Assembly (NCBI GenBank): GCA_021811585.1
Contig: JAJZOG010000011.1
Coordinates: 1 to 54,137, forward strand
Direction: 5' to 3'
Source of the DNA: a bacterium
GTDB taxonomy: Bacteria; Patescibacteriota; Doudnabacteria; UBA920; VMFF01
DNA: 54,137 bases
The notes under the pieces are model-generated. The model did not search any database and was not told where the DNA came from. It was given only the letters and a program-made list of their open reading frames with translations. Of the stretch, positions 39,123-54,137 are shown piece after piece (the first letter of the stretch is position 1; every line of letters starts with the position of its first letter). A program made the translations under genes and the position numbers.

Positions 39123-39172
39123 TTTTAGGTTTTAGGTTGGGGGTTTGGGTTGGGGGTTTGGGTTGGACCCTA
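39123..39172 (-). repeat. GGGTCCAACCC-headed 13-mer repeat element, copy B
   Basis: Minus strand TAGGGTCCAACCCAAACCCCCAACCCAAACCCCCAACCTAAAACCTAAAA; the TAG is the stop of 39170..39958. Confidence 0.9.
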
Positions 39173-39958
39173 ATGAAACCAATGCAAGAGGGTTTGCCAG
39201 AAACCTTCCCAAAAACCTCGCCGGTGCGCGCCGGTATTTCGAATAATTTTTATCATGCGCTCCTGGATCGCATTACCTTGCTTGGGTCCAAAAATTATTG
39301 CCATGCGGCTGTCTTTAAGCCCGCCGGGAACAGGCATGGATGCCAATGGCTCCGGAAAATTCTCCTGCATTCCGCTCGAGGATGCCGAGGAATAAACATA
39401 TACCTTTGTGCCGTTATCGGTGATTGCCTGCCATCTGCCGCTGCCGTCAGGGACAATGTCCCGGACCACGGCAATATTGCTGCTGTCAAAATCTTTTCCC
39501 CGATAGGCGCGATAAAATTGTCCGAAAACCGGCACATCATTTTTTCTCGCAAATCTGGAAAATCTTTCGTGGAAAGAAATTATATGCAAGGCAATGCTCG
39601 CAAGTGTTATAAGCGCGATGATAATCACCGGCAAATATAACAGCGGCTTCCTGTATGCAAACGAGTAGCGCCGCAGAAGCCATCCTATTATAAATGTGAA
39701 AACCAGGGCGACAAGCACGTGAGTCCACGGGAAGAGCAGGAAAAATATCAGCAAGCCCGGCCTGCCGAACATGGGCAAAAACCTGATGTTGCTCTCCCGA
39801 AGAATATAAAAAATAAAGCTCACGGAAAAGATGGAAATTACAAAAAGCAAAATCGTCGCCAAAATTACGAATGCAGTCCGCAAAGCAAAATAAATTTTCG
39901 GGCGCTTTTTCAATTCGCCTTTTTTTATTTTATCGATTATGTCTTTTTTAATATCCAT
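39170..39958 (-). CDS. Membrane protein downstream of the ECF sigma factor (possible anti-sigma partner)
   Basis: Three TM helices; directly follows the sigma gene. Confidence 0.7.
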   Translation of the reverse strand: MDIKKDIIDKIKKGELKKRPKIYFALRTAFVILATILLFVISIFSVSFIFYILRESNIRFLPMFGRPGLLIFFLLFPWTHVLVALVFTFIIGWLLRRYSFAYRKPLLYLPVIIIALITLASIALHIISFHERFSRFARKNDVPVFGQFYRAYRGKDFDSSNIAVVRDIVPDGSGRWQAITDNGTKVYVYSSASSSGMQENFPEPLASMPVPGGLKDSRMAIIFGPKQGNAIQERMIKIIRNTGAHRRGFWEGFWQTLLHWFH

Positions 39959-40021
39959 GTTGTTTTAAATAATCTGCCGCTTGATGCTTAATATCCATTT
40001 CATTTCACTAATGCTGCCGCT

Positions 40022-40573
40022 TTATGCCAATTTATCATATTCTTTTTTTAAATACTGCCTGCCGCGAGCCAGGCGCACGCCCACCGTGGCAACCGGTATT
40101 CTTAAAATATCGGCTATCTCTTTGTAATCAAAACCCTCGATGTAATAAAGCACCAGCGGCTCGCGGTATTTTATATCCAATTTTCGCAGCGAGGAATCCA
40201 AAATTTCCTTTGACTGGCGCAGGTTGATCTCGTCTTCGTGCTTTTCTTTCGGAATCTGCGGGAACAAAACATCAAGGTCGAAAAACGGAATTTTCTCGAG
40301 CTTGTTCCTCTTCAGGAAATTCACGCATTCATTATGCGCTATCCTGTATATCCAGGAAGAAAATTTTCTGCCCGTGTCAAAACTTTCTATGTTCCTGTAG
40401 GCCTTGATGAACGTTTCCTGGACAACATCTTCGGCGTCCCGGGCATCAAATAAAAATTTTGCCGCATAGCGCTGGAGCTTGCCTTCATACCTTTGCATCA
40501 GGACTGAAAATTTTTCATCCCTTCCGCGCTGAACGTCTGCGGCCGCGGATTCGTCGCTTTGCTCAATTATCAT
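40022..40573 (-). CDS. ECF RNA polymerase sigma factor (SigW-like)
   Basis: DAEDVVQETFIKAY, FSSWIYRIAHN, YKEIADILRIPVATV..RL.RG. Confidence 0.95.
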   Translation of the reverse strand: MIIEQSDESAAADVQRGRDEKFSVLMQRYEGKLQRYAAKFLFDARDAEDVVQETFIKAYRNIESFDTGRKFSSWIYRIAHNECVNFLKRNKLEKIPFFDLDVLFPQIPKEKHEDEINLRQSKEILDSSLRKLDIKYREPLVLYYIEGFDYKEIADILRIPVATVGVRLARGRQYLKKEYDKLA

Positions 40574-40639
40574 TATGTCTTACGAACTATATTACAAAAT
40601 TATGCAGCCGCTTATTTCAAGCGGTAATTGGAAGTATAT

Positions 40640-40673
40640 AAAAAACACCCGCGTTTGGAAAGCGCGGGTGTTT
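40640..40673 (-). terminator. Intrinsic terminator
   Basis: AAACACCCGCG...CGCGGGTGTTTTT on the minus strand. Confidence 0.7.
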
Positions 40674-40704
40674 GAAAACTTTGTTTTTCACTTATAACCG
40701 GATT

Positions 40705-40788
40705 ACTCCATGGCATCTATCCGATCTACTCCATGGCATGTGTCCGGCCTATTCCATGGCATCTATCCGACTCATTTCATGGCATGGC
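40705..40788. repeat. 23-bp degenerate tandem repeat (about 3.6 copies) with a CCATGG core
   Basis: ACTCCATGGCATCTATCCGATCT / ACTCCATGGCATGTGTCCGGCCT / ATTCCATGGCATCTATCCGACTC / ATTTCATGGCATGG. Confidence 0.85.
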
Positions 40789-40847
40789 CAAAGGACCCTA
40801 AAATTTTCTTTCATTTGCCGTTTATTTTTTTCACGGCTCCGGATTGC

Positions 40848-41675
40848 CTACTGGCCTTGGCTTTGGGCTCCGGATTGGCTTGAAGAATTTTTATCGCCTG
40901 ATCCTGCCGGGAAAGCCGCCCTCAAAGCCGCAACAGCTGTTTTCAAAGCATTTTCATAAGTTTGCACTGCCTGCGCCAGCGCTTCGTTGCGCGTATGCAC
41001 AAGCGCTGAAACCTGTGGGCCAACTTTATCCACGCTACGCATGGCCTGCTGCCTTGCTTGCCTTGCGGAAGCAAGTGCCGCAAAAAATGTCTGCCTTACT
41101 TGGGAAGGCGCGGTGCCTGCCGCGCAGCTGCTTTGTGCCTGCGTTATTGCTGCTTGCACTGCTGTCAAATAATTTTCAAACGCCTGGTCAATTGCAGTCC
41201 TGTGCCCGATAATAATCTGCTCCAGCCCCTGCCAAAACGCAGTGCGTGCCGCATCCACAGCGGATTCCCGCGCACTTGCAGCGCTCTCTATTGCCTGCTG
41301 AAACGCCGCGACCGCTTGTTTTTGCTCTGTTGTTGCCGCGCGAGCGCTCAAATGGGCATAAATTTTTTGCCTGTTCTGCTCCCAGTTCGCGCGCTGCTGA
41401 TCCAAAGTTTGCGTCTCTTGCGTTTGATGCTCCTGCGCCTGCGAATCCTCGCGGCTTATTCTGTCTTTTAAATTGGAAATTTGCCGGCTGATTGCCGCGG
41501 CATAGGTTTGCCCCCTCGCGGACAATGCCGTACAAAAAGCCGAACCCGCGGTTCGCGCAGATGTATTGGCTTCTGCCGATGCCGTGGCAACCTGATGCCT
41601 TGAGGCCGCAAGCGCCGGAGCTGCAACCAACGCCAAAGACAACGCGATTGATGAAATTAATTTTATCTTTTTCAT
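40848..41675 (-). CDS. Secreted Ala/Gln-rich coiled-coil protein
   Basis: Signal peptide MKKIKLISSIALSLALVAAPALA; two Cys; helical. Confidence 0.8.
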   Translation of the reverse strand: MKKIKLISSIALSLALVAAPALAASRHQVATASAEANTSARTAGSAFCTALSARGQTYAAAISRQISNLKDRISREDSQAQEHQTQETQTLDQQRANWEQNRQKIYAHLSARAATTEQKQAVAAFQQAIESAASARESAVDAARTAFWQGLEQIIIGHRTAIDQAFENYLTAVQAAITQAQSSCAAGTAPSQVRQTFFAALASARQARQQAMRSVDKVGPQVSALVHTRNEALAQAVQTYENALKTAVAALRAAFPAGSGDKNSSSQSGAQSQGQ

Positions 41676-42007
41676 TGTATTGGATTATTTACTGAATCAA
41701 GCGAAGAATTGGAGCTCGAACCGTCGGTCGAAACGCTCTGCGCATCCGATGCGCCATCCTGCGAAACCGTTGCATATGAATTTGTGCCTTCAGTTCCCAA
41801 GGAATTCAAATCAACTCCTGAGACAGAACCCACATTCGCCGCCTGCGGCGCAGGAACCTGCGACTGCCCGGCTTGCGAACTTTCAACCGAATTCGAATTA
41901 CTGCCGGTTTGGGCATATTGCCCGCCGTTGCTGCTCCTAATAAGAACCGAGGCGACAACCGCCAAGGCAATTATTACAACTGCCCAAATTATGTATTTTG
42001 TTTTCAT
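41672..42007 (-). CDS. Small membrane-anchored Ser/Gln-rich protein
   Basis: N-terminal TM; ATGA-type overlap with the next gene. Confidence 0.75.
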   Translation of the reverse strand: MKTKYIIWAVVIIALAVVASVLIRSSNGGQYAQTGSNSNSVESSQAGQSQVPAPQAANVGSVSGVDLNSLGTEGTNSYATVSQDGASDAQSVSTDGSSSNSSLDSVNNPIQ

Positions 42008-42248
42008 GTTTAATTATTATATTTAATAATGCTTTGCCTCCCGAATCGTGCAAGCATTAAAAGGCACGACCTCCCTTTTAATGCCAAACTTAAACGCATT
42101 ATAGGGCCTTTGCAAATCGTGCGCAACAAAAGAATCCACAGGCATTCGCAAAAAATTTCTTTTTTCATGCAAATGCTCTAAACTACATATAAACATATAT
42201 TATATGAATGATGCTCTATAAATGACGGCGAATGACACCGACATATAA

Positions 42249-43864
42249 ATGATAGTGCAAAGATACAAAAAATTGCTTTTTATATGCCTGGCGGTTTTGC
42301 TGGCAACCCTTGATGCGGCAAGCGCATTTGCTGCCGCCAAAATTGCTTCTGCCAAAAATTTTAATCTTCGGGTTTCTGTAAACGGACAATTATTTTCAAT
42401 AGATTCCGATAATGCTGGCGCGCCGCGAAATGCCGCGCAAATCCTCAAAAGCATCTGGACAGGCGCGCCCTTATATTCCGCCAAAGCGCTAAAGCAAACC
42501 ATTGCCAGCATAGCGACAAAAACAGACGTGCCTCCCAAAAATTATTCCATTTCTGCTGCAAACGGCAACGTTTATGTGGACACGGCAACTGCTCCTGGAA
42601 AAATTCTTAACCAGCAAACGGCTTTCCTGAAAATAACCGCGGCCATTGAAAACCATGAAAAAAAAATGGCCTTGGACTCAACTGTCCTGGAGCCGCAGGT
42701 GAGCATAACGAATGCGCAAAAGGCCGCGGCACAGGCAAACCTGCTCCTTGAAAAAGATTTATGGATTTCTTATAACGGGCATGTTATGCAAGTGCCGCGG
42801 CAAACAATCGCCGGATGGATTGGTTCTGTCCCCAGCGGCGCTGATGACCTGGAAATTTATCTCGACAAAAACAAGGTCGCCCAAACCCTGCGTTCGCTAA
42901 CGGAACAATATGATTCCGCTCCAAAAGAAATGGTTTTGGATCTGAACAGCCAAAATAAAAATTCGAATTTCATACCGCCTGTCACCGGAACGCAGGCAAA
43001 CACAAGCTTGGGGTCTGATCAAATTATAAATCTCTATTCGGAAGCGCTCGCGAGGAAAACTTCGGATTCGGGAAACAAAAATTCTCCGTTGAACATTGAG
43101 CTGATTACAATCCAGCCGCCTGTTCCTGATTCAGCCGCAAAATTAGGGATTGTCTCTGAAATCGGCACAGGCGCAACCACTTTTTACGACAGCTCAAATG
43201 CAAGAATACACAACATTAAAATCGGCGCAAATGCGCTTAATAATATTTTAATCGGCCCGGACAAGAATTTTCAACTCTAAATGCCCTTGGCGCAATAAAT
43301 GCGGCGCAGGGTTATGTGCCGGAACTTTCCATAATCGGAAACCAAACAATTCCCGAATACGGCGGCGGCTTATGCCAAATTGCGACAACGCTGTTTAGGG
43401 CAGTGTTAAACACTGGCCTGCCCGTAACTGATCGACAAAATCATTCTTACCGCGTTTCTTATTACGAACGCGACGGCAATGGCAAGTACATTGGCCCGGG
43501 GCTTGATGCCACAATCTATTCGCCTGCACCGGATTTCAAATTTGTGAATGATACAGGACACTGGATTCTTCTCACAAGCAAAGTGCAAGGCCTTCAACTT
43601 TCATTCACAATGTATGGAACTCCGGATGGCAGAAAAGTGCAAATTGACGGCCCAAAAATTCTTTCATCCTTGCCCGCGCCGGCGCCGGTTTACGAATACA
43701 CTTCAAAACTCCAGCCAGGCCAAACAATACAAACCGATATAGCACATCCCGGAGGCAGAACGACTGTTACCTATACTGTCACACATGCTGACGGCACCGT
43801 AAAAAAACAAATTTTCAACAGTTATTACGAGCCCTGGCCCGCAAGATATTTGGTTGGAAAATAA
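42249..43864 (+). pseudogene. VanW family protein, frameshifted near 43255 (true pseudogene or sequence error)
   Basis: ORF1 ends ARIHNIKIGA..LNNILIGP; the other frame continues GQEFSTLNALG...GYVPEL...YGGGLCQIATTLFRA...RQNHSY...GLDATIY. Confidence 0.85.
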
Positions 43865-43894
43865 AAACCCGTTCCACAAACAGCGTGGAACGGG
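43863..43894. terminator. Terminator between convergent genes
   Basis: CCCGTTCCAC/GTGGAACGGG stem with an adjacent A run. Confidence 0.7.
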
Positions 43895-43936
43895 GAAATT
43901 CAGAAGGTGTGGCAGGGCTTACATCACGTTACCTCA

Positions 43937-44413
43937 CTAGTTAGCCACTAGTAAGATAGGTATGCAAGCAAACGCAAAGCCGGACACTTTTGTAAGCAGG
44001 GCGCGATCCCTGCGCCCCACCGACATTACTGCCGGCATGACCACTTCTCCGTATTGGTCTTCTGCCAGCGTTCCCGGCGCAGCGCACCAGGTTTCAAGGC
44101 CAAATAAAGAATAGGCCTTTTTAATTTGTAACAGATGCCAATAATGCCCATAAGACAGGTTCTTGGGTAGCATGGCCGCTGTATTTACCCAATCAAAGCT
44201 GGGTTCGGTTTTCATTATAATGCACTTAAACGGGCTGAGCCGCGAGCCGGACGGCAGCGAAATTTGTTTTTTGTTTATTTCAGGCACTTTAAAAAATGGT
44301 CTGAATAAACTTTCGCTATGATCTTCGACTTCGTCAAAGGCCATAATCATTTCCCGTTCATCGCTCAGAACGGGTTGGACGATAAATTCGTCCAAAATAG
44401 TCATTACCGACAT
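43937..44413 (-). CDS. Hypothetical protein (ORFan)
   Basis: AAGGAGG upstream of ATG 44413; terminator downstream. Confidence 0.6.
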   Translation of the reverse strand: MSVMTILDEFIVQPVLSDEREMIMAFDEVEDHSESLFRPFFKVPEINKKQISLPSGSRLSPFKCIIMKTEPSFDWVNTAAMLPKNLSYGHYWHLLQIKKAYSLFGLETWCAAPGTLAEDQYGEVVMPAVMSVGRRDRALLTKVSGFAFACIPILLVAN

Positions 44414-44543
44414 ATTCCCTCCTTGTCTTTTCATTCACTGAAAACTTGCCAAAACCAATTATACCTTAACTACTTCAATTTGTCCACAAAGAAGCACCGT
44501 GGTAAACTATTAAAAATGCCGAACGTACTTTAGCGCAAACGAA

Positions 44544-46436
44544 ATGAAAACAAAAAACAAACAAACCGGCTTCACTCCAATTCAACAAAGCTTCATTCCG
44601 ACGGAACAAAGCTTCAATCCAGTCCAACAAAACAGCTTCACACTAACGGAACAAAGTTCCACTCCAATTCAACAAAACGGTTTCACTCTAATTGAAATTG
44701 TGGTAAGCATAGGAATTTTCGCCATACTTCTTGTTGGCATAATCAGCGCCTACAATTTGATGGCGCGCGGGGTTCGCGCTTTTCGGGAGCAGGCAACAAT
44801 TGCCGCGCTCGCGGACCAATACCTGGAAACCGCGCGCAATCTTCCCTATTCGCAAATAGGGACAACAAGCGGCAACCCGCACGGCAACCTTCCGGACCAA
44901 ACAGACCCGGCAACAAACAGCATCAATGGCGTGAATTATCAAATTTACTATGACATTGCCTACATTGACGATCCGGCTGATGACGCCACAGATACCTATC
45001 CCAACGATTACAAACAAGTGAAAGTTTATGTAAAAAATGAAAACACAGATGCGCTTGAAAGTTTTATTACCACAATCGCGCCGCAAGGCGAAGAAAGTTT
45101 GGCTTCAGGCGGCGAATTGCAGATTTCGGTTATTAACGCGGTGGGCCAGCCTGTTGCCGGCGCTTCGGTCCAAATTACAAATACTTCCATTTCTCCAAGC
45201 ATTAATGTTACACGGACAACGGACGCAAACGGCAATTGGGATGAAGCCGGCCTGCCTGACAGCGTCAACGGCTATCATATTGTTGTCACAAAATCAGGAT
45301 ATTCCATTGACCAAACCTACCCCATAACGCCGCAAAATCCAAACCCAGTTAAACCGGATGCCACAATTTCAAACGGCCAAATTACACAGGTAAGCTTTGC
45401 CATTGATTTGCTCAGCAATCTTACGATTGAAACTTTAAACCAGAAATGTTCGGCGATTTCCGGAGTCGGCACAAATGTACAAGGCGCAAAACTGATTGGC
45501 ACAAACCCCAATATTCCGAAATTCGATAATACTTTCACTTCCGATTCCAGCGGCAGCATAAATATGAATGGGATTGAATGGGATACTTACACTCCCACGC
45601 TCACTGATCCCGCGTATATGATTTACGGCTCATCGCCAATCCAGCAAATAAGCTTACTGCCAAACACCAGCGCGCTTTTCACTCTTATATTAGGACCCGC
45701 GACCGCCAACAGTTTGCTTGTAATAGTAAAAGACGCCGGCGGCAATCCCGTGGAAGGCGCCAATGTTGATTTGCAAACCATAACTCCGGCCAGCGACACC
45801 AACCAAACAACAGGCGGAAGCGTTTGGCTGCAAAACGATTGGTCCGGCGGATTCGGACAAGCGGATTGGTCAAGCCCTTCCATGTACTACCAAGACAGCG
45901 GCACAGTAAACACCGCAACAGCCGGACAAGTGGCGCTTTCACAGGCAAGCGGCGGAGGCGGAGGCACATATTCAAGTTCCGGGTGGCTGGAGTCCTCGTC
46001 TTTTGATACCGGATCAAGCCGCACATCTTATACTACTTTGGATTGGCAGCCGACTTCCCAAAATCCTTCCACCAGCATCTCTTTCCAAATAGCGACAAAT
46101 AATGACGATAAAACCTGGAATTTTTTGGGACCAAACGGGACTACCGGCAGTTTTTACACTGTGCCCGGCACAACCATAAGTTCAGCGAACAACGGAAACC
46201 GGTATGTGCGCTACAAAGTTTATTTTTCGACAAACGACACCTCCAAAACGCCCGTACTCACGAGCGTGGGCATAAATTATGTTTCCGGATGTTTCACTCC
46301 AGGGCAAACCATTTTCCCGGGCCTCACAGCAGGGTCCAATTACAATGTTATTGTGAGCGCGACCGGATATACCACGCAAACCTTCAATAACGTGGATATT
46401 AACGGATACAATGTTTTGGATGTGACACTGCAGTAA
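44544..46436 (+). CDS. Large type IV minor pilin-like protein with carboxypeptidase-regulatory-like beta-sandwich domains
   Basis: G|FTLIE plus hydrophobic helix; GQPVAGASVQI, TTDANG, GNPVEGANVDL. Confidence 0.88.
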   Translation: MKTKNKQTGFTPIQQSFIPTEQSFNPVQQNSFTLTEQSSTPIQQNGFTLIEIVVSIGIFAILLVGIISAYNLMARGVRAFREQATIAALADQYLETARNLPYSQIGTTSGNPHGNLPDQTDPATNSINGVNYQIYYDIAYIDDPADDATDTYPNDYKQVKVYVKNENTDALESFITTIAPQGEESLASGGELQISVINAVGQPVAGASVQITNTSISPSINVTRTTDANGNWDEAGLPDSVNGYHIVVTKSGYSIDQTYPITPQNPNPVKPDATISNGQITQVSFAIDLLSNLTIETLNQKCSAISGVGTNVQGAKLIGTNPNIPKFDNTFTSDSSGSINMNGIEWDTYTPTLTDPAYMIYGSSPIQQISLLPNTSALFTLILGPATANSLLVIVKDAGGNPVEGANVDLQTITPASDTNQTTGGSVWLQNDWSGGFGQADWSSPSMYYQDSGTVNTATAGQVALSQASGGGGGTYSSSGWLESSSFDTGSSRTSYTTLDWQPTSQNPSTSISFQIATNNDDKTWNFLGPNGTTGSFYTVPGTTISSANNGNRYVRYKVYFSTNDTSKTPVLTSVGINYVSGCFTPGQTIFPGLTAGSNYNVIVSATGYTTQTFNNVDINGYNVLDVTLQ

Positions 46437-46437
46437 C

Positions 46438-46491
46438 GGGTCCAACCCAAACCCCCAACCTAATACCCCAACCTAATACCCCAACCTAAAA
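46438..46491 (+). repeat. GGGTCCAACCC-headed 13-mer repeat element, copy C
   Basis: GGGTCCAACCCAAACCCCCAACCTAATACCCCAACCTAATACCCCAACCTAAAA, 1 nt after the TAA stop. Confidence 0.9.
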
Positions 46492-46570
46492 TTTTCAGCG
46501 CCCATATTTCTCGCTTATCCAAGCCGAAAATTATCCATATTAATCAAATCATCACAAAAATTTAATAAAA

Positions 46571-47182
46571 ATGAAAGAAAAAGGATTTACATTAATAGAG
46601 GTGATTGTTTCTATAGCAATTTTTGCGCTGTTATTTACCGGGGTTGTAGAATTAGTGGGGAAAATTTTTACCCAGGCTGGCGGACAATCGCTACTTCTAA
46701 GCAACGCGGATCAGGCGCGTAAAATAGTTTTCGCCTTTGCGGATGAAATTCGGAACGCCACATACGGGAATGACGGTTCATATCCCGTCGCCGAAGCGAA
46801 CGATCAAGAAATAATTTTTTTTAGCAGTGAGCCGCAGAACCCGCAAATAGCTGATAAAATCCGTTATTACATTTCCGGAAACGCCCTGTATCGCGGAATT
46901 ACAGTACCGAGTGGGAGTCCACTTTCCTACAATGGCGCAAACGAACAAAGCACCAAAATTGAGGATACCGTCGCAAACGGGACGACGCCACTGTTTTATT
47001 ATTATGACGGAAATTATGATGGTACAACTTCGCCGCTCACGCAACCTGTAAATTTGACCCAAATTAGATTTATCAAAATAAATATGGTAATTCCCAATCC
47101 TGCCGGCACGCAAACAAACAATACTTTCCCGATAACAGGAGGGGCAACTCTCAGAAATTTAAAGACAAATTTAGGCGATTAA
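46571..47182 (+). CDS. Type IV minor pilin/pseudopilin (PilW/GspJ-like)
   Basis: MKEKG|FTLIEVIVSIAIF; C-terminal LRNL. Confidence 0.9.
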   Translation: MKEKGFTLIEVIVSIAIFALLFTGVVELVGKIFTQAGGQSLLLSNADQARKIVFAFADEIRNATYGNDGSYPVAEANDQEIIFFSSEPQNPQIADKIRYYISGNALYRGITVPSGSPLSYNGANEQSTKIEDTVANGTTPLFYYYDGNYDGTTSPLTQPVNLTQIRFIKINMVIPNPAGTQTNNTFPITGGATLRNLKTNLGD

Positions 47183-47186
47183 TTAA

Positions 47187-48668
47187 ATGAAAATTAAATT
47201 TAACAAAAATAAAATAAAAACTAAAGCCAAAGCTGCCAAAAACTGCCAAACCAATATTCAGGTTAGGGGTTCAGGTCGGGGGTTCAGGTCGGGGGTTTGG
47301 GTTGGACCCCAATGCGGAAGCATGCTCATCTATCTGGTCGTCATTATTTTTATTTTTTCCTTGGTGATGCTCCCCATTTTGAGCAACATCGTCAAAGAAA
47401 TGCAGGTTCTGCGATCTTCAACTTACCGCGAAGAAGCGCTGCAAATCGCCGACGCCGGCGTAAATTATTACCAATGGCACCTCGCGCATTTTCCCACGGA
47501 TTATCAAGACGGCACGAACGCGCCGGGCCCATACGTGCACAATTATGTAGACACATCAACCCAGCAAACCATCGGCGAATTCAGTTTAAGCATCACCCCG
47601 CCTCTCGCTGGCTCCACAATCGTCACAATCATATCCACGGGCTGGACAAACAGCGATCCAAATATTAAAAGAACAGTAACCGCGCGCTACGGAATTCCCT
47701 CTCTGGCGCGCTACGCATTCCTCAGCAACGATGTTGTCTGGATAGGCAGCCAGGAAAATGTCTCGGGCACGCTCATGTCCAACAACGGCGTTCGCTTTGA
47801 CGGCACTACAAACGCGCCGGTTGAATCGGCAAAATCAACCTACACGTGCCCTGCTTCCCAGGGAACTCCATGCCCGGCAACTGAAAACGGCGTTTGGGGC
47901 GCAGGCAATTCAAATTTCTGGCAATATCCCGTTCCTGCCGTTGATTTCTCCAGCTTAACCGCAACAATGGCAAACCTGCAAAACCTGGCGCAAAGCGGCG
48001 GAATATTTTTGCCGCCTTCAAACGCACAGGGCTATTCCCTGGTTTTCAACAGCGACGGCACTGTGAGCGTCTACAAAGTTACCAGCTTGCAAGGCAATCC
48101 CCAAGGATGGGATGTCTACGGCAGGCCTCAACACCAGAACACAGATTACAACAACAGGACGCTTCTTTTTACAGACCCAATCCCATCCAACGGAATAATT
48201 TATGTCGAAGATACAACTTGGGTTGAAGGCACGGTAAACGGCCGCGCAACGGTTGCCGCGGGGATGCTGCCGTACAATCCGAATTCATCTCCTTCAATTT
48301 ATATTCCCAACAGCATAACCTATGCGGCAAAAGACGGCTCAGATGTCCTTGGGTTGATCGCCCAAAACAATCTTGCGCTCACATACCACGCCCCGGCGAG
48401 CATGGAAGTTGATGCTGTCCTTGTTGCTGAAAATGGGAGCGTACAATTCTTTTATTACCCCGACAATGTTAAAAATACGCTCACGGTTTTCGGTTCCATA
48501 ATCACTTACGGGCAATGGACGTGGACCTGGCTAAATGGCCAAGGCCAGCCGCAAGCAGGATATGAAACCACTTATGATACTTATGATGCAAATTTGCTAT
48601 ACAGTCCTCCGCCAAGCTTTCCGCTTTCAAATTCAGGGTATCAACTCTTAAGCTGGTCAAGCAATTAA
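47187..48668 (+). CDS. PilX/GspK-like minor pilin with a large C-terminal domain
   Basis: G|SMLIYLVVII lacking Glu5; EEALQIADAGVNYY; last pilin of the cluster. Confidence 0.8.
   Translation: MKIKFNKNKIKTKAKAAKNCQTNIQVRGSGRGFRSGVWVGPQCGSMLIYLVVIIFIFSLVMLPILSNIVKEMQVLRSSTYREEALQIADAGVNYYQWHLAHFPTDYQDGTNAPGPYVHNYVDTSTQQTIGEFSLSITPPLAGSTIVTIISTGWTNSDPNIKRTVTARYGIPSLARYAFLSNDVVWIGSQENVSGTLMSNNGVRFDGTTNAPVESAKSTYTCPASQGTPCPATENGVWGAGNSNFWQYPVPAVDFSSLTATMANLQNLAQSGGIFLPPSNAQGYSLVFNSDGTVSVYKVTSLQGNPQGWDVYGRPQHQNTDYNNRTLLFTDPIPSNGIIYVEDTTWVEGTVNGRATVAAGMLPYNPNSSPSIYIPNSITYAAKDGSDVLGLIAQNNLALTYHAPASMEVDAVLVAENGSVQFFYYPDNVKNTLTVFGSIITYGQWTWTWLNGQGQPQAGYETTYDTYDANLLYSPPPSFPLSNSGYQLLSWSSN
47257..47310 (-). 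repeat. GGGTCCAACCC-headed 13-mer repeat element, copy D (inside the pilin leader coding region)
   Basis: Plus strand TTCAGGTTAGGGG TTCAGGTCGGGGG TTCAGGTCGGGGG TTTGGGTTGGACCCC. Confidence 0.88.
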
Positions 48669-48704
48669 ACGAAAATAATTCAAGAAATTAATTAGATACG
48701 CTCC

Positions 48705-49103
48705 ATGAAAACTCTCCAACCAATCCAGTCGACAAATTTTAATAATTCCGCGCTCCAGCCGCTTCCTTTTAATATCGTTCCAAATATTTCGGGAAATATA
48801 AACTACACGGCGCCAGGCAGTTCAAACCAAAGTGCAGGCGCTACCGGATCGGGCACTTCCGGCTCGGGCTCGGGCGCAACAACCGGCTCAAGCGCAACCG
48901 GCGCAGGAAACGGGATTTCGGGCGCTCAAATGCAAAATGAAAATTCCGGGAATGCACAGCAAACGGCAAATTCCGCTGCCGCGGAAATTAAAAATCTAAG
49001 CAGTGCGATAAAAAAACCCGCCAACTATCCTTGGATCATAATAGGGCTTATGGCAGCTCTTTTGATTCTCGCCTATATTTTGAAGAAAATCGAAAAAAAA
49101 TAG
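48705..49103 (+). CDS. Gly/Ser/Thr-rich protein with a C-terminal membrane anchor
   Basis: Low-complexity linker; YPWIIIGLMAALLILAYILKK. Confidence 0.7.
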   Translation: MKTLQPIQSTNFNNSALQPLPFNIVPNISGNINYTAPGSSNQSAGATGSGTSGSGSGATTGSSATGAGNGISGAQMQNENSGNAQQTANSAAAEIKNLSSAIKKPANYPWIIIGLMAALLILAYILKKIEKK

Positions 49104-49110
49104 TTCACGC

Positions 49111-49692
49111 TTACTCCAATTTTCTAAACACATAACCTTGCCGGGCAAGCTCCGGCAGGCAAATTCTCAGCGCTTCGGCAGTGCGGCCGCGTTTTGCATG
49201 AACAAGTGTTTTTTCGCCGTCATGTAAAAGGATAATTGCCCCCGGGCCGGCGCGTTTAACAATCCTCCGCGCCATCCATTGCGCGCTTGGCTGCCACCAA
49301 TCATAAGCATGCAAATCCCAGGAAAAAAATTTATAACCGGCGCGCTCCAGTTTCCGGCGCGCTGATTTAGGAATTTTTCCCCACGGTGCGCGCAGCAAAC
49401 GCGGCGCAAACCCGATGATTTGGCGCAAGGCCTCTCCTGTTTTTAAAAATTCCCGCGCAAGCGCGCGTCCGAAAAAAATATTGCGCCAGGCATGCGCATA
49501 AGAATGGTTGCCCAAAGCATGCCCCTGTGCGGCAATCCGCCTCACAAGCTCGGGGTTTCTCAACGCATTTTTTCCGCAGACAAAAAAAGTCGCCTCAGCT
49601 CCGTTTTGCGCCAAAATTTCCAAAATCTCCTCTGTGCATGGCGGGTTTGGCCCGTCATCAAAAGTGAAATATAAAATTTTCCGCCCGTTCAT
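49111..49692 (-). CDS. Polysaccharide deacetylase (NodB/CE4)
   Basis: TFDDGP, ATFFV, GNHSYAH, RAPWG, DW, IILLHD. Confidence 0.95.
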   Translation of the reverse strand: MNGRKILYFTFDDGPNPPCTEEILEILAQNGAEATFFVCGKNALRNPELVRRIAAQGHALGNHSYAHAWRNIFFGRALAREFLKTGEALRQIIGFAPRLLRAPWGKIPKSARRKLERAGYKFFSWDLHAYDWWQPSAQWMARRIVKRAGPGAIILLHDGEKTLVHAKRGRTAEALRICLPELARQGYVFRKLE

Positions 49693-50779
49693 TTTGCCCT
49701 TTCATTTCCGCTCGTTCATTTTTGCCTGCCATTTTGCCCTGCCATTTTGCTCGTTCATTTTTTGGCCTGCCATTATTCAAATTGCCAAGCCGCCTCAACC
49801 GCTGCTTAATGGCAGGATGAAAATTCCAACGCAAATCTTTTACTCCGCGATCAACCCTCAAATCCACGTTTCGCGCGCCGGCATCCAAAAAGGCGTCGGC
49901 GCCGGCGCCGGCTTTTTGAGCGCCGAGATAAATCCTTTCCGCCCCGCTGCCGCCGAATTTCGCCGCGCGCGCAAAAATTGCGCCGTGCGTAAATACCGTG
50001 GCAGCCGCCAAAACCACTGCCAAAGGCCACGCATAAGCAATCGGCGAAATTGATTCATGCCTGATTGGCGGCAATTCATTTTTATAATTCTTACCAAAAA
50101 AATCGCGCGAGACAACGTTGGGAACATATCCGTAGGCAGCGGCCCAAAACCCTTTTCTATACCTGCGGCCAGAGGTCGCCACAATCAGCTTCTTATCCAG
50201 GACAACCTTGCCATAGCGTGAAAGTTTTTTTGAAAGCTCGCCGTCTTCGCCCATTTTCAAATTAGTATTAAAACCGCCGGATTTTAGAAAAACATTTTTT
50301 AGTACAGCCATATTTGCGCCCGGGAGAATCCAGCAGCCGGTCCATCTTTTTTCCAATTTCCAGGCATAGTATGCTCCGCGCGGAAATAACATTCGGGTCA
50401 AAAGCGGTCCAGAGACGAGCTTGTAGAGGCCGCCATAAGCGACGACATTCCTTTTTGCGGAAAATTTTGCCGCGATTTTGGAAAGCCAGTTCTCGGGCAA
50501 AATTGTATCCGCGTCGGTGGTTGCGATGATTTCGCCGCGCGCGCATTCAAAACCTTTTTGGCGCGCATAAGCCACGCCGGCCCTGGTTTCAAAAACAACT
50601 TTTGCCCCGCCGCGCAAAGCAATGTGCGCGGTTTTGTCCGTGGAATTATTATCAACAACAATAACCTCGAAATTCTTATAATCCTGCCTGGCAACACTTG
50701 CCAAGGTCCTGGCCAGGAAATGCTCTTCGTTAAATGCGGGGATCACTATTGAAATTAAAGGATTTCTCCGGTTTTTCAT
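49658..50779 (-). CDS. Glycosyltransferase family 2 with a C-terminal TM segment
   Basis: SIVIPAFNEE, VVDNNSTD, TDAD, GANMA, GGF...GED; alternative GTG start at 50797. Confidence 0.93.
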   Translation of the reverse strand: MKNRRNPLISIVIPAFNEEHFLARTLASVARQDYKNFEVIVVDNNSTDKTAHIALRGGAKVVFETRAGVAYARQKGFECARGEIIATTDADTILPENWLSKIAAKFSAKRNVVAYGGLYKLVSGPLLTRMLFPRGAYYAWKLEKRWTGCWILPGANMAVLKNVFLKSGGFNTNLKMGEDGELSKKLSRYGKVVLDKKLIVATSGRRYRKGFWAAAYGYVPNVVSRDFFGKNYKNELPPIRHESISPIAYAWPLAVVLAAATVFTHGAIFARAAKFGGSGAERIYLGAQKAGAGADAFLDAGARNVDLRVDRGVKDLRWNFHPAIKQRLRRLGNLNNGRPKNERAKWQGKMAGKNERAEMKGQNERAENFIFHF

Positions 50780-50883
50780 AACTAAACTGTTTTTCACAAC
50801 TAAACTTAATTTTAGGGTTTAAAAATTATGGTTTTAGGCTTTTAATATTGAGGATTTAGGTTGAATTTAAGTAAAATTTGCAT

Positions 50884-51037
50884 TTTGGGTTGGGGGTTTG
50901 GGTTGGGGGTTTGGGTTGGGGGTTTAGGTTGGGGGTTTGGGTTGGACCCTACTGCATGGGGGTTTGGGTTGGACCCTACTGCATGGGGGTTTGGGTTGGA
51001 CCCTACTGCATGGGGGTTTGGGTTGGACCCTACTGCA
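50884..51037 (-). repeat. GGGTCCAACCC-headed repeat element, copy E: four perfect 27-bp units plus 13-mers
   Basis: Plus strand TGGGGGTTTGGGTTGGACCCTACTGCA x4 (50930-51037), preceded by TTTGGGTTGGGGG x3. Confidence 0.95.
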
Positions 51038-51620
51038 GGATTCGCTGGGCCAGACCTGTCCTCACGAAAATAAGATACAAAATTATAACCATAATGACAA
51101 CCCCAAACGTTATTATGCCCAAATAAAAATTCAAATGCGCGTAGGCCTTGCCAAAATAATATCCTGCAACAATTAATACTGCACTTTTAATTGCCGTTGA
51201 AATGGAATTCGCGGCCGCGACTTTTTTGTAGCCCACATTGGCAATGCCAGCGGCCGCCAAAGTCACAGCACCAAACCCGTGCAAAAATTTAGCTACAAAC
51301 AACGTTTTAAAAGAATGCTTTTTAAAATGACTTTCCAATTTCGCAACCCTGTCCATTGTTACCCCGATGTAATGGCCTTTTGTCCTGATAAACTTTTCCC
51401 TGCCAAACCTGCCCATGGAATAATAAAGCAAATCGCCTATAAAATCCCCGAGCGCGACCGTAATATAGGCGAGAAAAATATTCATTAAGCCGATGGACGC
51501 CAAAAATCCCGAGAAAAAAGTAATAACCGGCCCTTCAACAACGGCAATGGAAAAAATAATCAAATATTTAAATTTTAAAAACCAGGAAATATGCGATAAA
51601 TGCCCGACATCAATAAGCAT
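51030..51620 (-). CDS. DedA/VTT family membrane protein
   Basis: EGP..T..SGFLA, GD..GDLLYYSMGR, LFVAKF, AAG. Confidence 0.9.
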   Translation of the reverse strand: MLIDVGHLSHISWFLKFKYLIIFSIAVVEGPVITFFSGFLASIGLMNIFLAYITVALGDFIGDLLYYSMGRFGREKFIRTKGHYIGVTMDRVAKLESHFKKHSFKTLFVAKFLHGFGAVTLAAAGIANVGYKKVAAANSISTAIKSAVLIVAGYYFGKAYAHLNFYLGIITFGVVIMVIILYLIFVRTGLAQRILQ

Positions 51621-51621
51621 A

Positions 51622-52851
51622 TTATTTCTCCTCGAGCCCGGACGGCTCCGGAACCAACATCAAAAATTCATCTTTTTGCCTTGAAACAGACCAAGCGAAC
51701 ACAAACAAAACAAACATGCCGATTATCACCGCGCCAAAGCTTGCGGCAAAAATATCGGCTGAAAACATCAGCGCCAAATACAAGAGCGCGCGCAAACCCA
51801 TGCGCGTGAGATTGCGGTATGTCACGGCGTTTAAAATTCCCCTCTGGGTTCCGCGCTCAAATGTCGCCACATCCAAAGGAATGTCTATGAAGATCGCCAT
51901 AATGGCAATTAGAAAAACGCTTGCATACGAAACCACCGGGTTATTTATAAACGAAACGCGTAAAATCCAAACCGCAAAAACCGCGAGCGCTCCAAAAGCT
52001 ATCATTCTATAAATGTTCCGCCGCACGCTGAATTTGCCACTTATGTATGTAAAAATGAGGCCGGCAAGGGAAATAATTACCGGGATGTATGCCGCGGCGC
52101 GAATGCTCACAAACAGAAAAAAAATAAAAAACGGCCAGATTGTATCTTCCACTTCCGCCTGCAAAGCCGCAAAAGCTCCCATAAGATAATTGATCTTTTC
52201 CAATGGCCTGGAAAAAAATTCTTTTGCGCGCGAAGGCGCAACATCCGGCTTGAATTCGGCGTGCTTCATCATGGAAAGCGGAATAAGCGAACCCAGCATC
52301 AGGAAAGTTGTTGCGAAAATCAAAGTTTTTTGCCCCGCGGCAATGAGCAATAAGGCGCCAATGGCCGGCGCAAGCAAGCCGCCGATTGTGCGGACAATGT
52401 TCAGAGCCGAAACGTCCCCGCGCATTTTCTCGGTTTTGTGCGCTGCCTGCGCAAAAATATAGAGGTGTGAAACCCAATAAAAAGAATCAAAAATCGCCAT
52501 GAAAAAAGCCATGGCAGCAAGCCAGGCAAAGCTGTGCGAAAGGTTGAAAAAAATAATCAGAAAAATCAGTTCGGCAATAATGGAAAAAATCAGCGCGGTT
52601 TTCGCGCCCATTCGCACAATCACCTTGCGGGCCGCCAAATTAAAAGGGACATCAATGGCATTAAATAAAAAATAAAAAGCCATTATTTGGAAAATGGGAA
52701 ACCCGATCATCCACAAAATTATGGGGACAAAAACCGAAATCAGCGATTGCGCAAATGCCTGTATCCAAACGCTAAGCTCGAAGAGGTGCATATCAGTGCC
52801 AAACAATTCTCTCAGATGTTCGTTGTAGGAGTAAAAGTAACGAAGATTCAT
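51622..52851 (-). CDS. MFS-like transporter
   Basis: About 12 hydrophobic segments; GGLLAPAIGA. Confidence 0.8.
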   Translation of the reverse strand: MNLRYFYSYNEHLRELFGTDMHLFELSVWIQAFAQSLISVFVPIILWMIGFPIFQIMAFYFLFNAIDVPFNLAARKVIVRMGAKTALIFSIIAELIFLIIFFNLSHSFAWLAAMAFFMAIFDSFYWVSHLYIFAQAAHKTEKMRGDVSALNIVRTIGGLLAPAIGALLLIAAGQKTLIFATTFLMLGSLIPLSMMKHAEFKPDVAPSRAKEFFSRPLEKINYLMGAFAALQAEVEDTIWPFFIFFLFVSIRAAAYIPVIISLAGLIFTYISGKFSVRRNIYRMIAFGALAVFAVWILRVSFINNPVVSYASVFLIAIMAIFIDIPLDVATFERGTQRGILNAVTYRNLTRMGLRALLYLALMFSADIFAASFGAVIIGMFVLFVFAWSVSRQKDEFLMLVPEPSGLEEK

Positions 52852-53058
52852 ATGGAAATCCTAAAACTTTTAAGCGTTAATATCATTTAATATTATGGAA
52901 TGCTATTTGGCGTTCGAAAACTTGCCCGATTAATTTGCATATTATGCGTCTTATGCGTCGCCAATACGCATCGCCAAACTTGCATATTATGCGGAATTAA
53001 TGATTATACGGAGTTAATAACATTTTAACATAAATAAAATATTATTGGCATTTGTCTA

Positions 53059-53110
53059 TTATATTAAAGCATTTATATTAAAGCATATTAAAACATTTAT
53101 ATTAAAGCAT
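53059..53110. repeat. AT-rich 14-bp tandem repeat TTATATTAAAGCAT
   Basis: Full copies at 53059, 53073 and 53097, with a partial copy at 53087. Confidence 0.8.
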
Positions 53111-53285
53111 TCTGCAACTATTAAGATATGAAAGCTATTTATTAAAGCTATTAAAGATATTCCTGGAATTTAGCGCTCCACCGCATTTCTGCAGGATGGT
53201 TTGTGATTTGCACAAATTTGCGGGTTTTGGCATAATTGGTGCAAGTTTGCAGTTTCAAACTCAAGTTCAAGGGGGAACATAATAC

Positions 53286-53615
53286 ATGATGGTTCAAGCG
53301 GCGACAGCGGTACGGATGGCACGCGTCATACAAAACCCGTCCGGCCTGCCGGACAGTTTTATATGGAATGGACGCAGAGGCCTTGTTATGTATTCGCCAG
53401 AATTTTCTCGAGCATTTGCGAGGATCACTGACGAATCACAACAAGCGAGTGCAGAATTTCGGGCCAAACTCGGGCAATTGTGCCTGGTTGGACCAAACGC
53501 ATTTTGCACGCGTAAAAACATAACGCGCGTGCATAAGCGGTTTTCTGTTGAGTGGAAGCATCAAGGAGGAATCTTAATGATGCTTTCAATTATTTCGGGT
53601 GTTCATCAATCTTAA
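53286..53615 (+). CDS. Hypothetical protein (ORFan)
   Basis: AGGGGG upstream; ends just before the next RBS. Confidence 0.5.
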   Translation: MMVQAATAVRMARVIQNPSGLPDSFIWNGRRGLVMYSPEFSRAFARITDESQQASAEFRAKLGQLCLVGPNAFCTRKNITRVHKRFSVEWKHQGGILMMLSIISGVHQS

Positions 53616-53629
53616 AAGGAGGATTGTGC

Positions 53630-53989
53630 ATGTACTTGGCGTGGGCAGCGACGTTGGGAATTGGTGTGGGATGGCTCACAAGTATTTATTCTCGATTGAG
53701 CGGCCATCCATTTGTTGTGACCTTTTTGCTAACTATGGTATGGGCCACGTTAGTTTTCCGGCTCGCCATAGTAGCAAAAAACAAATTTCAACTAGTTACG
53801 GGCGGAATCGGGGGATTCTTAATCCTCGGATTCCTACTCCGAAATGTCCCCATATCTCCGTGGGGCCTCGTGACCCTGACCGGCCTTTATGGCGGCTTTG
53901 TTGTCGCCGTATGGGTCCACAACATTGATACAAATTTTTCTACCAGAGAGAAGCAGGCCGCCGGCTCCTCAACTCATCCTTCGGGATGA
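53630..53989 (+). CDS. Small hypothetical membrane protein (about four TM)
   Basis: AGGAGG before ATG 53630; hydrophobic; terminator at the stop. Confidence 0.65.
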   Translation: MYLAWAATLGIGVGWLTSIYSRLSGHPFVVTFLLTMVWATLVFRLAIVAKNKFQLVTGGIGGFLILGFLLRNVPISPWGLVTLTGLYGGFVVAVWVHNIDTNFSTREKQAAGSSTHPSG

Positions 53990-53998
53990 GTTTTTTTT
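53971..53998 (+). terminator. Intrinsic terminator
   Basis: AACTCATCC-TTCG-GGATGAGTT followed by a T run. Confidence 0.85.
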
Positions 53999-54010
53999 GA
54001 TCAGGGCCCA

Positions 54011-54078
54011 GGGTCCAACCCAAACCCCCAACCTAAACCCCTGATCCAAACCCCCAATCTAAAACCCTAACCTAAAAA
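54011..54078 (+). repeat. GGGTCCAACCC-headed 13-mer repeat element, copy F
   Basis: GGGTCC AACCCAAACCCCC AACCTAAACCCCT GATCCAAACCCCC AATCTAAAACCCT AACCTAAAA. Confidence 0.9.
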
Positions 54079-54137
54079 ATAATGCACTTTTAAAGGACTT
54101 TTTATTAACTTCTTCTTAAATACTTAACAAAAAACCC

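Follow-up and report, generated by a model that had tools for sequence, protein, structure and literature searches.

Repeat loci in the window and the family across the genome

The window, by which we mean the whole 54,137-nt stretch of DNA analysed here, carries five loci at which an 11-nt head, GGGTCCAACCC, is followed by units of 13 nt to form what we call an arm. All five had been placed correctly in the initial annotation, but three of them run head-to-tail on the minus strand, which corrects its account. Ten matches to the head with at most one mismatch occur in the window, against 0.51 expected, and 10 or more were reached in none of 100 shuffles. Eight are exact, at 39170(-), 46438(+), 47309(-), 50949, 50976, 51003 and 51030 (these four on the minus strand) and 54011(+), and the remaining two, at 10409 and 10453, are matches to a variant head that had been overlooked. 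Tandem Repeats Finder recovers 13-nt arrays at all five loci and reports 50930-51037 as a perfect array of a 27-nt unit (4.0 copies). The repeats and their neighbours are as follows.

10409..10463, no strand assigned: candidate mini-doublet, diverged, bearing the variant head GGGTTCAACCC (nhmmer E-values 0.4 and 1.1)
39123..39172, minus strand: solo arm, head at 39160-39170, then 2-3 units of 13 nt
39139-39162, plus strand: canonical G-quadruplex motif within that solo arm
39170-39958, minus strand: 262-aa gene, its TAG completed by the first G of the head
44544-46436, plus strand: pilin-like gene, 630 aa; the arm at 46438 begins 1 nt past its TAA
46438..46491, plus strand: solo arm, head and three units, two of them identical
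46571-47182, plus strand: prepilin-type gene, 203 aa (N_methyl, 33.4 bits)
47257..47309, minus strand: solo arm, in the opposite orientation to that at 46438; units 1 and 2 have private base changes in common
ATG at 47322: 448-aa gene, with an arm head 12 nt upstream
50884..51037, minus strand: four-headed arm, a perfect 27-nt x 4 array followed by four units of 13 nt
50887-50909: canonical G-quadruplex motif within the four-headed arm
51030-51620, minus strand: VTT-domain gene, 196 aa, its TAG overlapped by the outermost head
54011..54137, plus strand: long arm plus core belonging to a type A doublet that breaks off after 127 nt, where the contig stops

The 27-nt unit of the four-headed arm comprises 7 nt of flank, the head and the start of the first unit. 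The fifth copy, previously taken to end at 54078, instead reaches the contig end at 54137; these 127 nt are the opening part of a type A doublet of 178 nt and agree with a full copy at 125 of 127 positions. The short arm that is lacking here lies at one end of contig C2 or C17. The mini-doublet at 10409..10463 is without significance by itself in the nhmmer search.

A scan of the genome (G000; 748.7 kb in 19 contigs, 91.5% complete) finds 30 arms and bears out the description of a dispersed, polar, non-autonomous family at gene ends. The arms are laid out as eight complete doublets, at least four halves at contig ends, three gene-bracketing pairs, one of them around a transposase gene, and solo arms. 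Most sit in inverted doublets of 178-194 nt, with two arms, heads outward, about a core of 60-80 nt, and these fold into a long hairpin (z-scores -8.8 and -7.6, with none of 200 shuffles equally good). The arms of a doublet are unequal, with 2-3 units on one side and 4-6 on the other. Type A doublets (n = 4, 178 nt) are 96.6-99.4% alike and type B doublets (n = 4, 181-194 nt) 88.7-99.4% alike, in both cases at unrelated sites, and no target-site duplication was found at any of the eight complete doublets. A single arm has a stem of just 4 bp (GGGT/ACCC), not a palindrome of about 20-40 nt, and solo arms fold no better than shuffled sequence (z -1.4 to +0.3). The commonest 16-mers of the genome belong to this family, the top one at 31 copies, and the top 11 (23-31 copies) all derive from the arms that flank the transposase gene at C2:29413-29997. 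The family also breaks assembly, with four contig ends falling inside a type A element.

The decay of the units with distance from the head holds genome-wide: mean matches to the consensus over units 1-5 are 12.4, 10.2, 9.7, 5.6 and 3.8 of 13, with a background of 3.2, in a set of 30 arms that does not amount to 30 independent cases because many are copies of one another. Unit number varies from 1 to 5 per arm, and the local change in unit number that had been proposed is visible in private variants common to neighbouring units. The exact repeat is present in none of 40 relatives and has no match in two public collections. Neither empty sites nor excision products turned up in the same relatives, those collections or Logan contigs, and no clean deletion of an element was found in the Logan contigs; mobility and function are inferred. 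Two further genera of this bacterium's family show the 13-nt register as well, in the surroundings of their RAYT genes, with repeat sequences that differ. The relative G004 holds 34 copies of a head with 13-nt units, of other sequence, and the relative G003 holds three.

Docking at the ends of reading frames

Of the 30 arms, 19 adjoin a start or stop codon, at a distance of at most 2 nt in 15 cases; by position, 11 lie at stops, eight at starts and 11 at neither. Counted as insertion events, 13 of 21 fall within 2 nt of a frame end, where uniform intergenic insertion predicts 4.9%. Docking this tight is commoner for short arms than for long ones (10/12 against 2/10, p 0.008), under a looser criterion the figures are 10/12 and 5/10 (p 0.17) with no significant asymmetry between the ends, and the p-values are generous because the flank motif is post hoc, the gene models are crude longest-frame calls and the copies share ancestry. 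The similarity of the 5′ flanks first noticed in the window extends to the genome: a motif set after the data had been viewed is present at 14 of 27 loci, against a background of 3.7%, and TA lies within the last 4 flank nucleotides of 16 of the 30 arms, against 14%. An insertion 0-2 nt ahead of a start should part the gene from its ribosome-binding site.

The gene junctions described earlier in the window are sound, with TAG stops overlapping the head at 39170 and 51030, a TAA 1 nt ahead of the head at 46438 and a terminator-like hairpin (53971-53992) preceding the fifth copy. Relatives of the 262-aa minus-strand frame that ends at 39170 are found in 2 of 20 kin genomes as open frames of 258 and 256 aa, and this agreement in length argues that the insertions respect gene ends; a plus-strand frame overlapping the same gene has a relative in none of the 20. 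The arms at 46438 and 47309 bracket the 203-aa prepilin-type gene with heads outward, which is also the layout of the transposase unit on C2. For G004, a frame of 58 to at least 494 codons has its stop 11-16 nt before the hairpin in 7 of the 13 copies examined.

The transposase and known repeat systems

Three genes outside the window bear on the enzyme involved.

C2:29413-29997: Y1/HUH transposase, 194 aa, the genome's only Y1_Tnp match
C3:6989-7585: RVT_1 gene; C3 carries no arm
C7:1101-1712: RVT_1 gene; the nearest arm on C7 is at 13341

The initial annotation had pointed to REP elements and their RAYT/HUH enzymes, and this was the right lead: the sole Y1_Tnp gene is bracketed by inverted copies of the repeat, two arms each about 50 nt long (C2:29278(+) and 30082(-)) with heads outward. 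Its product scores 48.9 bits against Pfam PF01797 (Y1_Tnp; cut-off 23). An alignment of 30 relatives shows no variation at H60 and H62, the HUH histidines, or at Y120, the tyrosine of a Y-I-H-x-N-P motif. By profile the closest solved structure is 4er8 (TnpA-REP, E 5.8e-6; ISDra2 0.19), and the fold search likewise puts 4er8, from E. coli, at the top (E 2.9e-7, TM 0.58/0.67), with 2xma, 2vjv and 2a6m ranked after it. The sole NCBIfam match is REP_Tyr_transpos, at 48.9 bits and thus below the equivalog cut-off of 80, and relatives are named at source 'REP element-mobilizing transposase RayT'. No TnpB-type gene was found in the genome.

Rather than an undescribed class, as was first proposed, the family fits published REPIN/RAYT and TIRtron kinds (PMC3116915, PMC3733652). 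In the REPIN-RAYT literature (Bertels & Rainey 2011, PMC3116915; Bertels et al. 2017, PMC5581495), a single-copy Y1/HUH transposase gene is flanked by the most abundant 16-mers of its genome, the repeats are extragenic, hairpin-folding inverted doublets are the conserved unit, singlets occur too, and tandem clusters that include flanking sequence are described. The present system resembles that portrayal in its single-copy Y1 gene with the top 16-mers in its extragenic flanks, in its hairpin doublets, in its solo arms, in the extragenic placement of its repeats and in a 27-nt x 4 array that takes in flank sequence. It departs from the same portrayal in an arm built as a 4-bp mini-hairpin with 1-5 phased 13-nt units and not as a 20-40 nt palindrome, in doublet arms of unequal unit number, and in a host whose genome, of candidate phyla radiation type, measures 0.75 Mb. 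Two classical REP features fail: the arms have no palindrome, and of the terminal tag of REPs, GTAG (or CGTC), the GTAG form stands at 2 of 30. A literature search found no publication tying REPINs or RAYTs to candidate phyla radiation bacteria. To our knowledge, work on REPINs and RAYTs has so far been almost confined to Proteobacteria and a few other cultured groups.

TIRtrons, as outlined in the available part of Di Nocera et al. 2013 (PMC3733652), consist of a RAYT-like (TIRYT) gene between long inverted repeats that have no relation to GTAG REPs; these TIRs are moderately abundant and occur as a family of singles, dimers and groups. The inverted arms around the C2 gene and the dispersed singles, dimers and groups of the present family are of the same kind; however, the GGGGWSAS of some TIRs is present at none of the 30 arms, and neither a 13-nt internal register nor docking at starts and stops is mentioned in that part of PMC3733652. 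TIRtron is nonetheless the closer label, because single arms are not real palindromes. With IS200/IS605 elements such as IS608 and ISDra2 the system has in common the HUH/Y1 fold, the absence of target duplication and a conserved short motif flanking just one element end. The target motif of IS608 is TTAC. Unlike those elements, the transposase gene here is single-copy and not itself multiplied, no TnpB-type gene accompanies it, and the ends are inverted copies instead of two different subterminal hairpins. The REP/BIME sequences of E. coli sit in 3′ untranslated regions near stops and their hairpin is bound by a RAYT (TnpA-REP, 4er8), likenesses set against the scarcity of GTAG in our arms, the lack of a stable single-unit palindrome and the many copies that precede start codons. 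Liang et al. (2015) reportedly described regulation by REPs near stop codons.

What is found here is a small complete system, with one enzyme gene, 30 arms and two doublet types, in a streamlined genome of roughly 0.75 Mb in which each intergenic base is costly. It offers a compact test case for substrate and target choice by HUH transposases, and for repeats as tolerated parasites versus useful gene-end modules; the features that recommend it are phased half-site arrays across genera, asymmetry of the doublet ends and docking at 0-2 nt.

Interpretation and alternatives

The arms most probably make up a REPIN-like (or TIRtron-like) non-autonomous family that is served in trans by the sole HUH/Y1 REP-associated tyrosine transposase of the genome. 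The mobile unit would be the inverted doublet, whose single-stranded form folds up as one long hairpin. On the model of IS200/IS605 and of E. coli TnpA-REP, the transposase would recognise the foot of this hairpin, that is, the head and its TA-rich outer flank, and would cut and rejoin single strands without target duplication. The short-arm end may land directly downstream (3′) of a motif of the kind T-(G/T)-C-A-(G)-T-A-Y, and in a genome that is about 90% coding the survivors would be insertions at the very ends of reading frames; the heads, we propose, stand 0-2 nt from stops and starts because such insertions alone survive. Solo arms, which account for four of the five window loci, may be remnants or one-ended products. 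In the 13-nt tail the 3′ half of the small palindrome of the head recurs in phase, and the tail grows and shrinks in place by local tandem duplication. The selection argument leaves seven tolerated insertions, 0-2 nt before starts, unexplained.

A more specific version of transposase-driven spread, which we hold to be quite unlikely, supposes a RAYT lineage in ultra-small bacteria whose substrate is the phased array itself (mini-hairpin plus 3′ half-sites in a 13-nt register) and whose insertion is by target choice, and not by survival alone, at the first or last codon of genes. Since the register is kept in three genera while the sequence has changed, the enzyme may read it, perhaps as an oligomer, or may make it, conceivably by cutting and rejoining again and again, each time one register along. 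If true, reading-frame ends would be what this mobile element recognises, and its copies would punctuate the operons of a genome that is 90% coding.

Compatible with transposase-driven spread, and itself unlikely, is the idea that the host has selected the arms as punctuation, keeping them at frame ends for their action as RNA or DNA. After stops they may be C-rich 3′ UTR modules for mRNA 3′-end protection, attenuation or ribosome stalling at termination, and before starts they may be G-rich 5′ leaders acting on initiation. The tightness of docking beyond uniform intergenic insertion speaks for this, as do its recurrence in G004 with a different sequence, the full length of the gene ending at 39170, the natural-looking N-termini given by start codons beside heads (for example SmpB-like MKTLVTNRKARFNYE) and a promoter-like site just outside the long arm that points through one type B element to smpB. 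However, a search of type A and type B elements turned up neither promoter-like nor terminator-like sites within them, the fold of solo arms is not significant, the 11 undocked arms abut nothing, and target preference combined with purifying selection in a 90% coding genome would give the same picture.

The reading first offered, an undescribed element with templated, telomerase-like or reverse-transcribed tail addition acting as a G-quadruplex or C-rich attenuator, now appears very improbable. The head-to-tail polarity and the unit register are real, unit number varies with private variants common to neighbours, the genome does hold two RVT_1 genes, and canonical G-quadruplex motifs do lie in two window copies. 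Yet neither RVT_1 gene adjoins an arm, the arms instead bracket a tyrosine transposase, no RNA family match to the repeats was found, and the G-quadruplex motif, present in 4 of 30 arms and nine times in the whole genome, is not a family property. Moreover, arms of different doublets are near-identical, which argues that elements are copied whole and not made anew at every site. We give equally little credence to ordinary MITEs of a DDE transposon, whose TIRs an rve-type or some other DDE transposase would recognise in double-stranded form: the doublets do look like MITEs, with a length of 178-194 nt, long inverted ends and an AT-rich core, and two rve-domain genes exist, but these are on C12 and C15, contigs without arms, no DDE_Tnp_1 or Transposase_mut match was found in the genome, target-site duplication is absent at 8 of 8 complete doublets, and the Y1 transposase is the sole DNA-mobility enzyme gene in an arm-bracketed transposon layout. 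An assembly artefact, with the assembler having produced the copies or the 27-nt array as chimeric joins, is scarcely credible. The four contig ends noted above fall inside a type A element at exactly 127 nt (or 119 nt), and Logan contigs break at each repeat, with repeat-induced joints appearing; against this, a 57-nt Logan unitig at the 27-nt array has a depth of 75.6 against 30-41 in the flanks, which suggests more than one unit, the unitigs leaving the exact number unconfirmed. The eight doublets and the solo arms of the window have unique flanks on both sides within contigs, an independent assembly of run X1 repeats the flanks with 0-1 differing letters, and the locus at 47257-47309 is bridged by Logan contig 4 of that run and by a contig of low depth from run X2.

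The repeat family and its arrangement

The repeats at five loci in the window, read by the initial annotation as a "telomere-like" family and a new class of element, belong to a REPIN/RAYT-type, TIRtron-like family whose own transposase gene lies on another contig. Each arm consists of an 11-nt head followed by 13-nt units. With at most 1 mismatch, the head GGGTCCAACCC is matched 10 times in the window against 0.51 expected, a count reached by 0 of 100 shuffles, and Tandem Repeats Finder returned the 13-nt period at all 5 loci, so that the coordinates and the head-then-units polarity proposed earlier stand; the minus-strand reading at three of the five loci had gone unmentioned. Exact heads in the window number eight:

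39170 (-), one head
46438 (+), one head
47309 (-), one head
50949-51030 (-), four heads
54011 (+), one head

The source genome assembly comprises 748,701 bases in 19 contigs and is 91.5% complete, with the window as the whole of contig C14. Across it, the head scan (at most 1 mismatch) gave 37 matches, 33 of which run on into a first unit and resolve into 30 distinct arms and 3 extra tandem heads. Most arms are laid out as inverted pairs with heads outward around a core (doublets), of which there are two types.

Arrangement of arms in the source genome
Type A doublets: four, 178 nt, copies 96.6-99.4% alike
Type B doublets: four, 181-194 nt, core different from type A, copies 88.7-99.4% alike
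Contig ends lying 127 nt (or 119 nt) inside a type A element: four, including the 3' end of the window
Wider heads-outward pairs around genes: three, C2:29278/30082, C7:13341/15993 and window 46438/47309
Solo arms: C1:6618, C9:7369 and window 39170
Four-headed arm: window 50949-51030

Because the window ends inside a type A element, its fifth copy is half a doublet, the rest of which lies on another contig. Doublet copies sit at unrelated sites, and a target-site duplication was found at 0 of the 8 complete doublets. Folded as single strands, the doublets form one long hairpin (z -8.8 and -7.6; 0 of 200 shuffles as good), and their ends are unequal, with a long arm of 4-6 units and a short arm of 2-3.

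The tail decays with distance from the head: mean consensus matches per 13 positions are 12.4, 10.2, 9.7, 5.6 and 3.8 for units 1 to 5, against a background of 3.2, although many arms are copied from few masters and these means do not represent 30 independent decays. Private variants are common to neighbouring units at four arms; local tandem duplication therefore alters the unit number within the arm itself:

Window 47309: the same two changes present in each of two units
Window 46438: an identical pair of units
Window 50949: three units, all identical
C10:11377: two identical units

Each 13-nt unit closes with the 3' half of the small palindrome in the head, and thus the array amounts to one full mini-hairpin followed by phased half-sites. 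At 50930-51037 the window also holds a perfect 27-nt x 4.0 array, each repeat spanning 7 bases of flank, the head and the beginning of unit 1; PMC3116915 describes tandem REPIN clusters in which flanking sequence is included.

Two public sequencing runs were compared through their Logan contigs. One holds 99% of the sampled words and may be the source sample; its contigs recover the flanks, break off at every repeat, as is usual for repeats, and span the copy at 47257-47309, as does a low-depth contig of the other run. Within these Logan contigs no empty site or excision joint removes an element cleanly, the joints present having short sides (20-41 nt) or linking repeat to repeat. The 27-nt array has a unitig depth of 75.6 against 30-41 in its flanks, a figure from unitigs that do not fix the number of units. 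The single RNA run compared gave one 35-nt piece, at less than 90% likeness.

The transposase and the class of the family

The lead to REP elements and HUH enzymes in the initial annotation was sound, and the enzyme lies outside the window, on C2, where inverted arms (C2:29278/30082) bracket a gene of 194 aa (C2:29413-29997) that alone in the genome matches Y1_Tnp (48.9 bits; cut-off 23). Its sole NCBIfam match is the model for REP-associated tyrosine transposases, at a score of 48.9, which is below the equivalog cut-off of 80. Aligned with 29 relatives, the protein keeps both HUH histidines and the tyrosine of Y-I-H-x-N-P as invariant residues. The alignment-profile search placed E. coli TnpA-REP (4er8) at E 5.8e-6, with the ISDra2 transposase behind at 0.19, and a fold search with the AlphaFold model (pLDDT 88.4) again ranked 4er8 best (E 2.9e-7, TM 0.58/0.67), with the ISDra2 and IS608 transposases next. 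The closest protein among 5.8 billion has only 43% identity; named relatives carry the label "REP element-mobilizing transposase RayT" or "transposase" and come from cyanobacteria and several candidate phyla radiation groups. No TnpB partner gene was found. We infer that this transposase would drive mobilisation of the arms, by a single-strand mechanism.

An arm pair in the same layout, C7:13341-15993, encloses, heads outward, two genes (488 aa and 214 aa), which from their sequences we take to be methyltransferase-like and 6-phosphogluconolactonase-like, respectively; a degenerate extra head lies directly before C7:13341.

The REPIN-RAYT signature in PMC3116915 and PMC5581495 is a single-copy RAYT gene beside the commonest 16-mers, together with hairpin-forming inverted doublets. 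The source genome shares each of these features: its RAYT-type gene is single-copy, the commonest 16-mers (31 copies) belong to the arm family and flank that gene, and the inverted doublets form hairpins. A classical REP is a 20-40 nt palindrome, which a single arm is not: only a 4-bp stem, GGGT/ACCC, forms, solo arms fold like shuffles (z -1.4 to +0.3), and the GTAG tag occurs in 2 of 30 arms. The closer description is the TIRtron of PMC3733652, a RAYT-like gene between long inverted repeats that are also dispersed as singles, dimers and groups, though the GGGGWSAS motif common to some TIRs is found in 0 of 30 arms.

Other candidate enzymes and structures were rejected. The initial annotation had proposed G-quadruplex formation, but canonical motifs number 9 genome-wide and fall in only 4 of the 30 arms (two of them in the window, at 39139-39162 and 50887-50909), which is not a family property. 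A reverse transcriptase was considered, and neither of the two RVT_1 genes adjoins an arm; these lie at C7:1101-1712(+) and C3:6989-7585(-), in frames of 361 and 376 aa. As for DDE enzymes, DDE_Tnp_1 and Transposase_mut were unmatched, and the integrase-core (rve) genes on C12 and C15 are without arms nearby. The rve matches are at C15:46070-46345(+) and C12:20099-20332(-), the latter with an internal TAA and near a contig end. No Rfam family was matched in the repeats of the window or of four loci with doublets and the transposase unit; the sole Rfam match in the window is a tRNA gene at 17184-17267(-). Any function of the arms in RNA would be putative.

The 19-nt repeat pattern was present in 0 of 40 relatives, a set that contains no genome of the same genus, and searches of genome_contigs and metagenome_contigs for the exact 23-nt string of head and unit each gave 0 matches. 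The transposase has relatives in 10 of 40 kin genomes and, counting the source genome, in 3 of 10 genomes of the family. Both other family members with the gene, from two further genera, flank it with inverted arms of the same design and a different sequence. In one (G003), which has 3 copies in its genome, the 3' half of the head AGGTTCAACCT recurs in the two units behind it at a spacing of 13 nt; in the other (G004) the head GAGGGTGCCCCTC precedes 2-4 decaying units of type GATGGCACCCTCG, with 34 copies. Four genomes from other families within the order carry short palindromes of the ordinary kind, with no tail, around the gene. In a scan of 92 RAYT loci, 13-nt arrays next to the gene were confined to three entries of this family (the source genome and one relative listed twice), while some cyanobacterial and other loci carry arrays of 15-20 nt whole-hairpin units. 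Because the 13-nt spacing was kept while the sequence turned over, comparison of the three genera argues for a register that would be under constraint.

Apart from the passing KEGG annotation of one preprint, the literature search found no paper joining REPINs or RAYTs with candidate phyla radiation bacteria. Three features seem new enough to record: the arm design of a mini-hairpin with phased 13-nt half-sites, kept in three genera; the unequal doublet ends; and, in a genome of very small size, docking 0-2 nt from the start or stop codon.

Docking at the ends of reading frames

A head-strand frame of at least 100 codons stops at the head in 11 of the 30 arms (eight end -2 to +1 nt of the head, one 8 nt before it and two inside the element). 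At 8 further arms an opposite-strand ATG begins an outward-reading frame of 70 codons or more, seven of these ATGs lying 0-2 nt from the head and that at window 47309 lying 12 nt away; the other 11 arms are at neither a start nor a stop. Start codons at heads open natural-looking N-termini, for example SmpB-like and GTPase-like. The gene ending at window 39170 encodes 262 aa, compared with open frames of 258 and 256 aa in relatives, and a search for relatives of the competing plus-strand frame there found none. Other genes neighbouring arms encode HlyD-like, family 2 glycosyltransferase and VTT-domain proteins and two prepilin-type proteins.

Measured on gene models that are crude longest-frame calls (741 genes, 90% coding), 13 of 21 insertion events lie at most 2 nt from a frame end, against 4.9% of intergenic insertion points. 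Docking within 2 nt distinguishes short arms (10 of 12) from long arms (2 of 10; p 0.008), as does docking at start codons over doublets, contig-end halves and the transposase unit (7 of 12 against 0 of 10; p 0.005), but under a looser criterion the gap is not significant (p 0.17).

The outer flanks suggest a candidate target motif. TA occurs in the last 4 flank nt of 16 of 30 arms (background 14%), and 14 of 27 loci (background 3.7%) carry a (G/T)CA(G)T-type motif that ends 0-3 nt away from the head, this motif having been defined post hoc and overlapping the reverse complement of ATG. CTGCAGTA was rejected as a dedicated target, since only 2 of its 13 occurrences in the genome adjoin a head. 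In G004, 7 of the 13 copies examined have a frame (58 to at least 494 codons) with its stop 11-16 nt before the hairpin, which places these stops 0-4 nt before a conserved 5' extension, four of them as a TAA at exactly -15; another two stops fall at -2 and +1, and a single start codon is found 13 nt away. Enzymes of the IS200/IS605 type likewise produce no target duplication and a conserved flank at a single end, a pattern that may be compared with the TTAC target of IS608.

Regulatory signals and other repeats

A simple scan found no promoter-like or terminator-like site inside type A or type B elements. To the right of the type B element at C7:50997-51177, a promoter-like site, TTTTCA-17-TAGAAT (positions 1524-1552 of the extracted locus, L003), is found 4 nt beyond the outer edge of the long arm, facing smpB through the element. 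Without the element, the -10 box would stand about 6 nt before the smpB ATG, a distance that would fit a leaderless transcript.

Arrays of a heptamer, GTTRRTA, make up a second dispersed repeat family and are frequently arranged as inverted doublets (C6:24119-24199 is one). With 20 copies, the 16-mers of this family rank second in frequency across the genome; its arrays are not beside the transposase gene and have no linked enzyme. The loci are:

Window 11248-11268, GTTRRTA array
Window 21091-21184, GTTRRTA array
At least 27 further loci, on 13 contigs of the source genome

Another array of 13-nt period, at window 49678-49774, has about 6 A-rich units whose sequence is not related to that of the REP units; placed where a glycosyltransferase gene, 49658-50797(-), meets the following gene on the minus strand, it codes for a C-terminal tail of low complexity. 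Near the 5' end of a pilin-like gene of 630 aa, window 44569-44686 contains tandem repeats of 21 and 45 nt, upstream of the N-terminal methylation motif at residues 44-66 of the product. The protein may carry a repetitive leader, or its start may have been annotated too far upstream.
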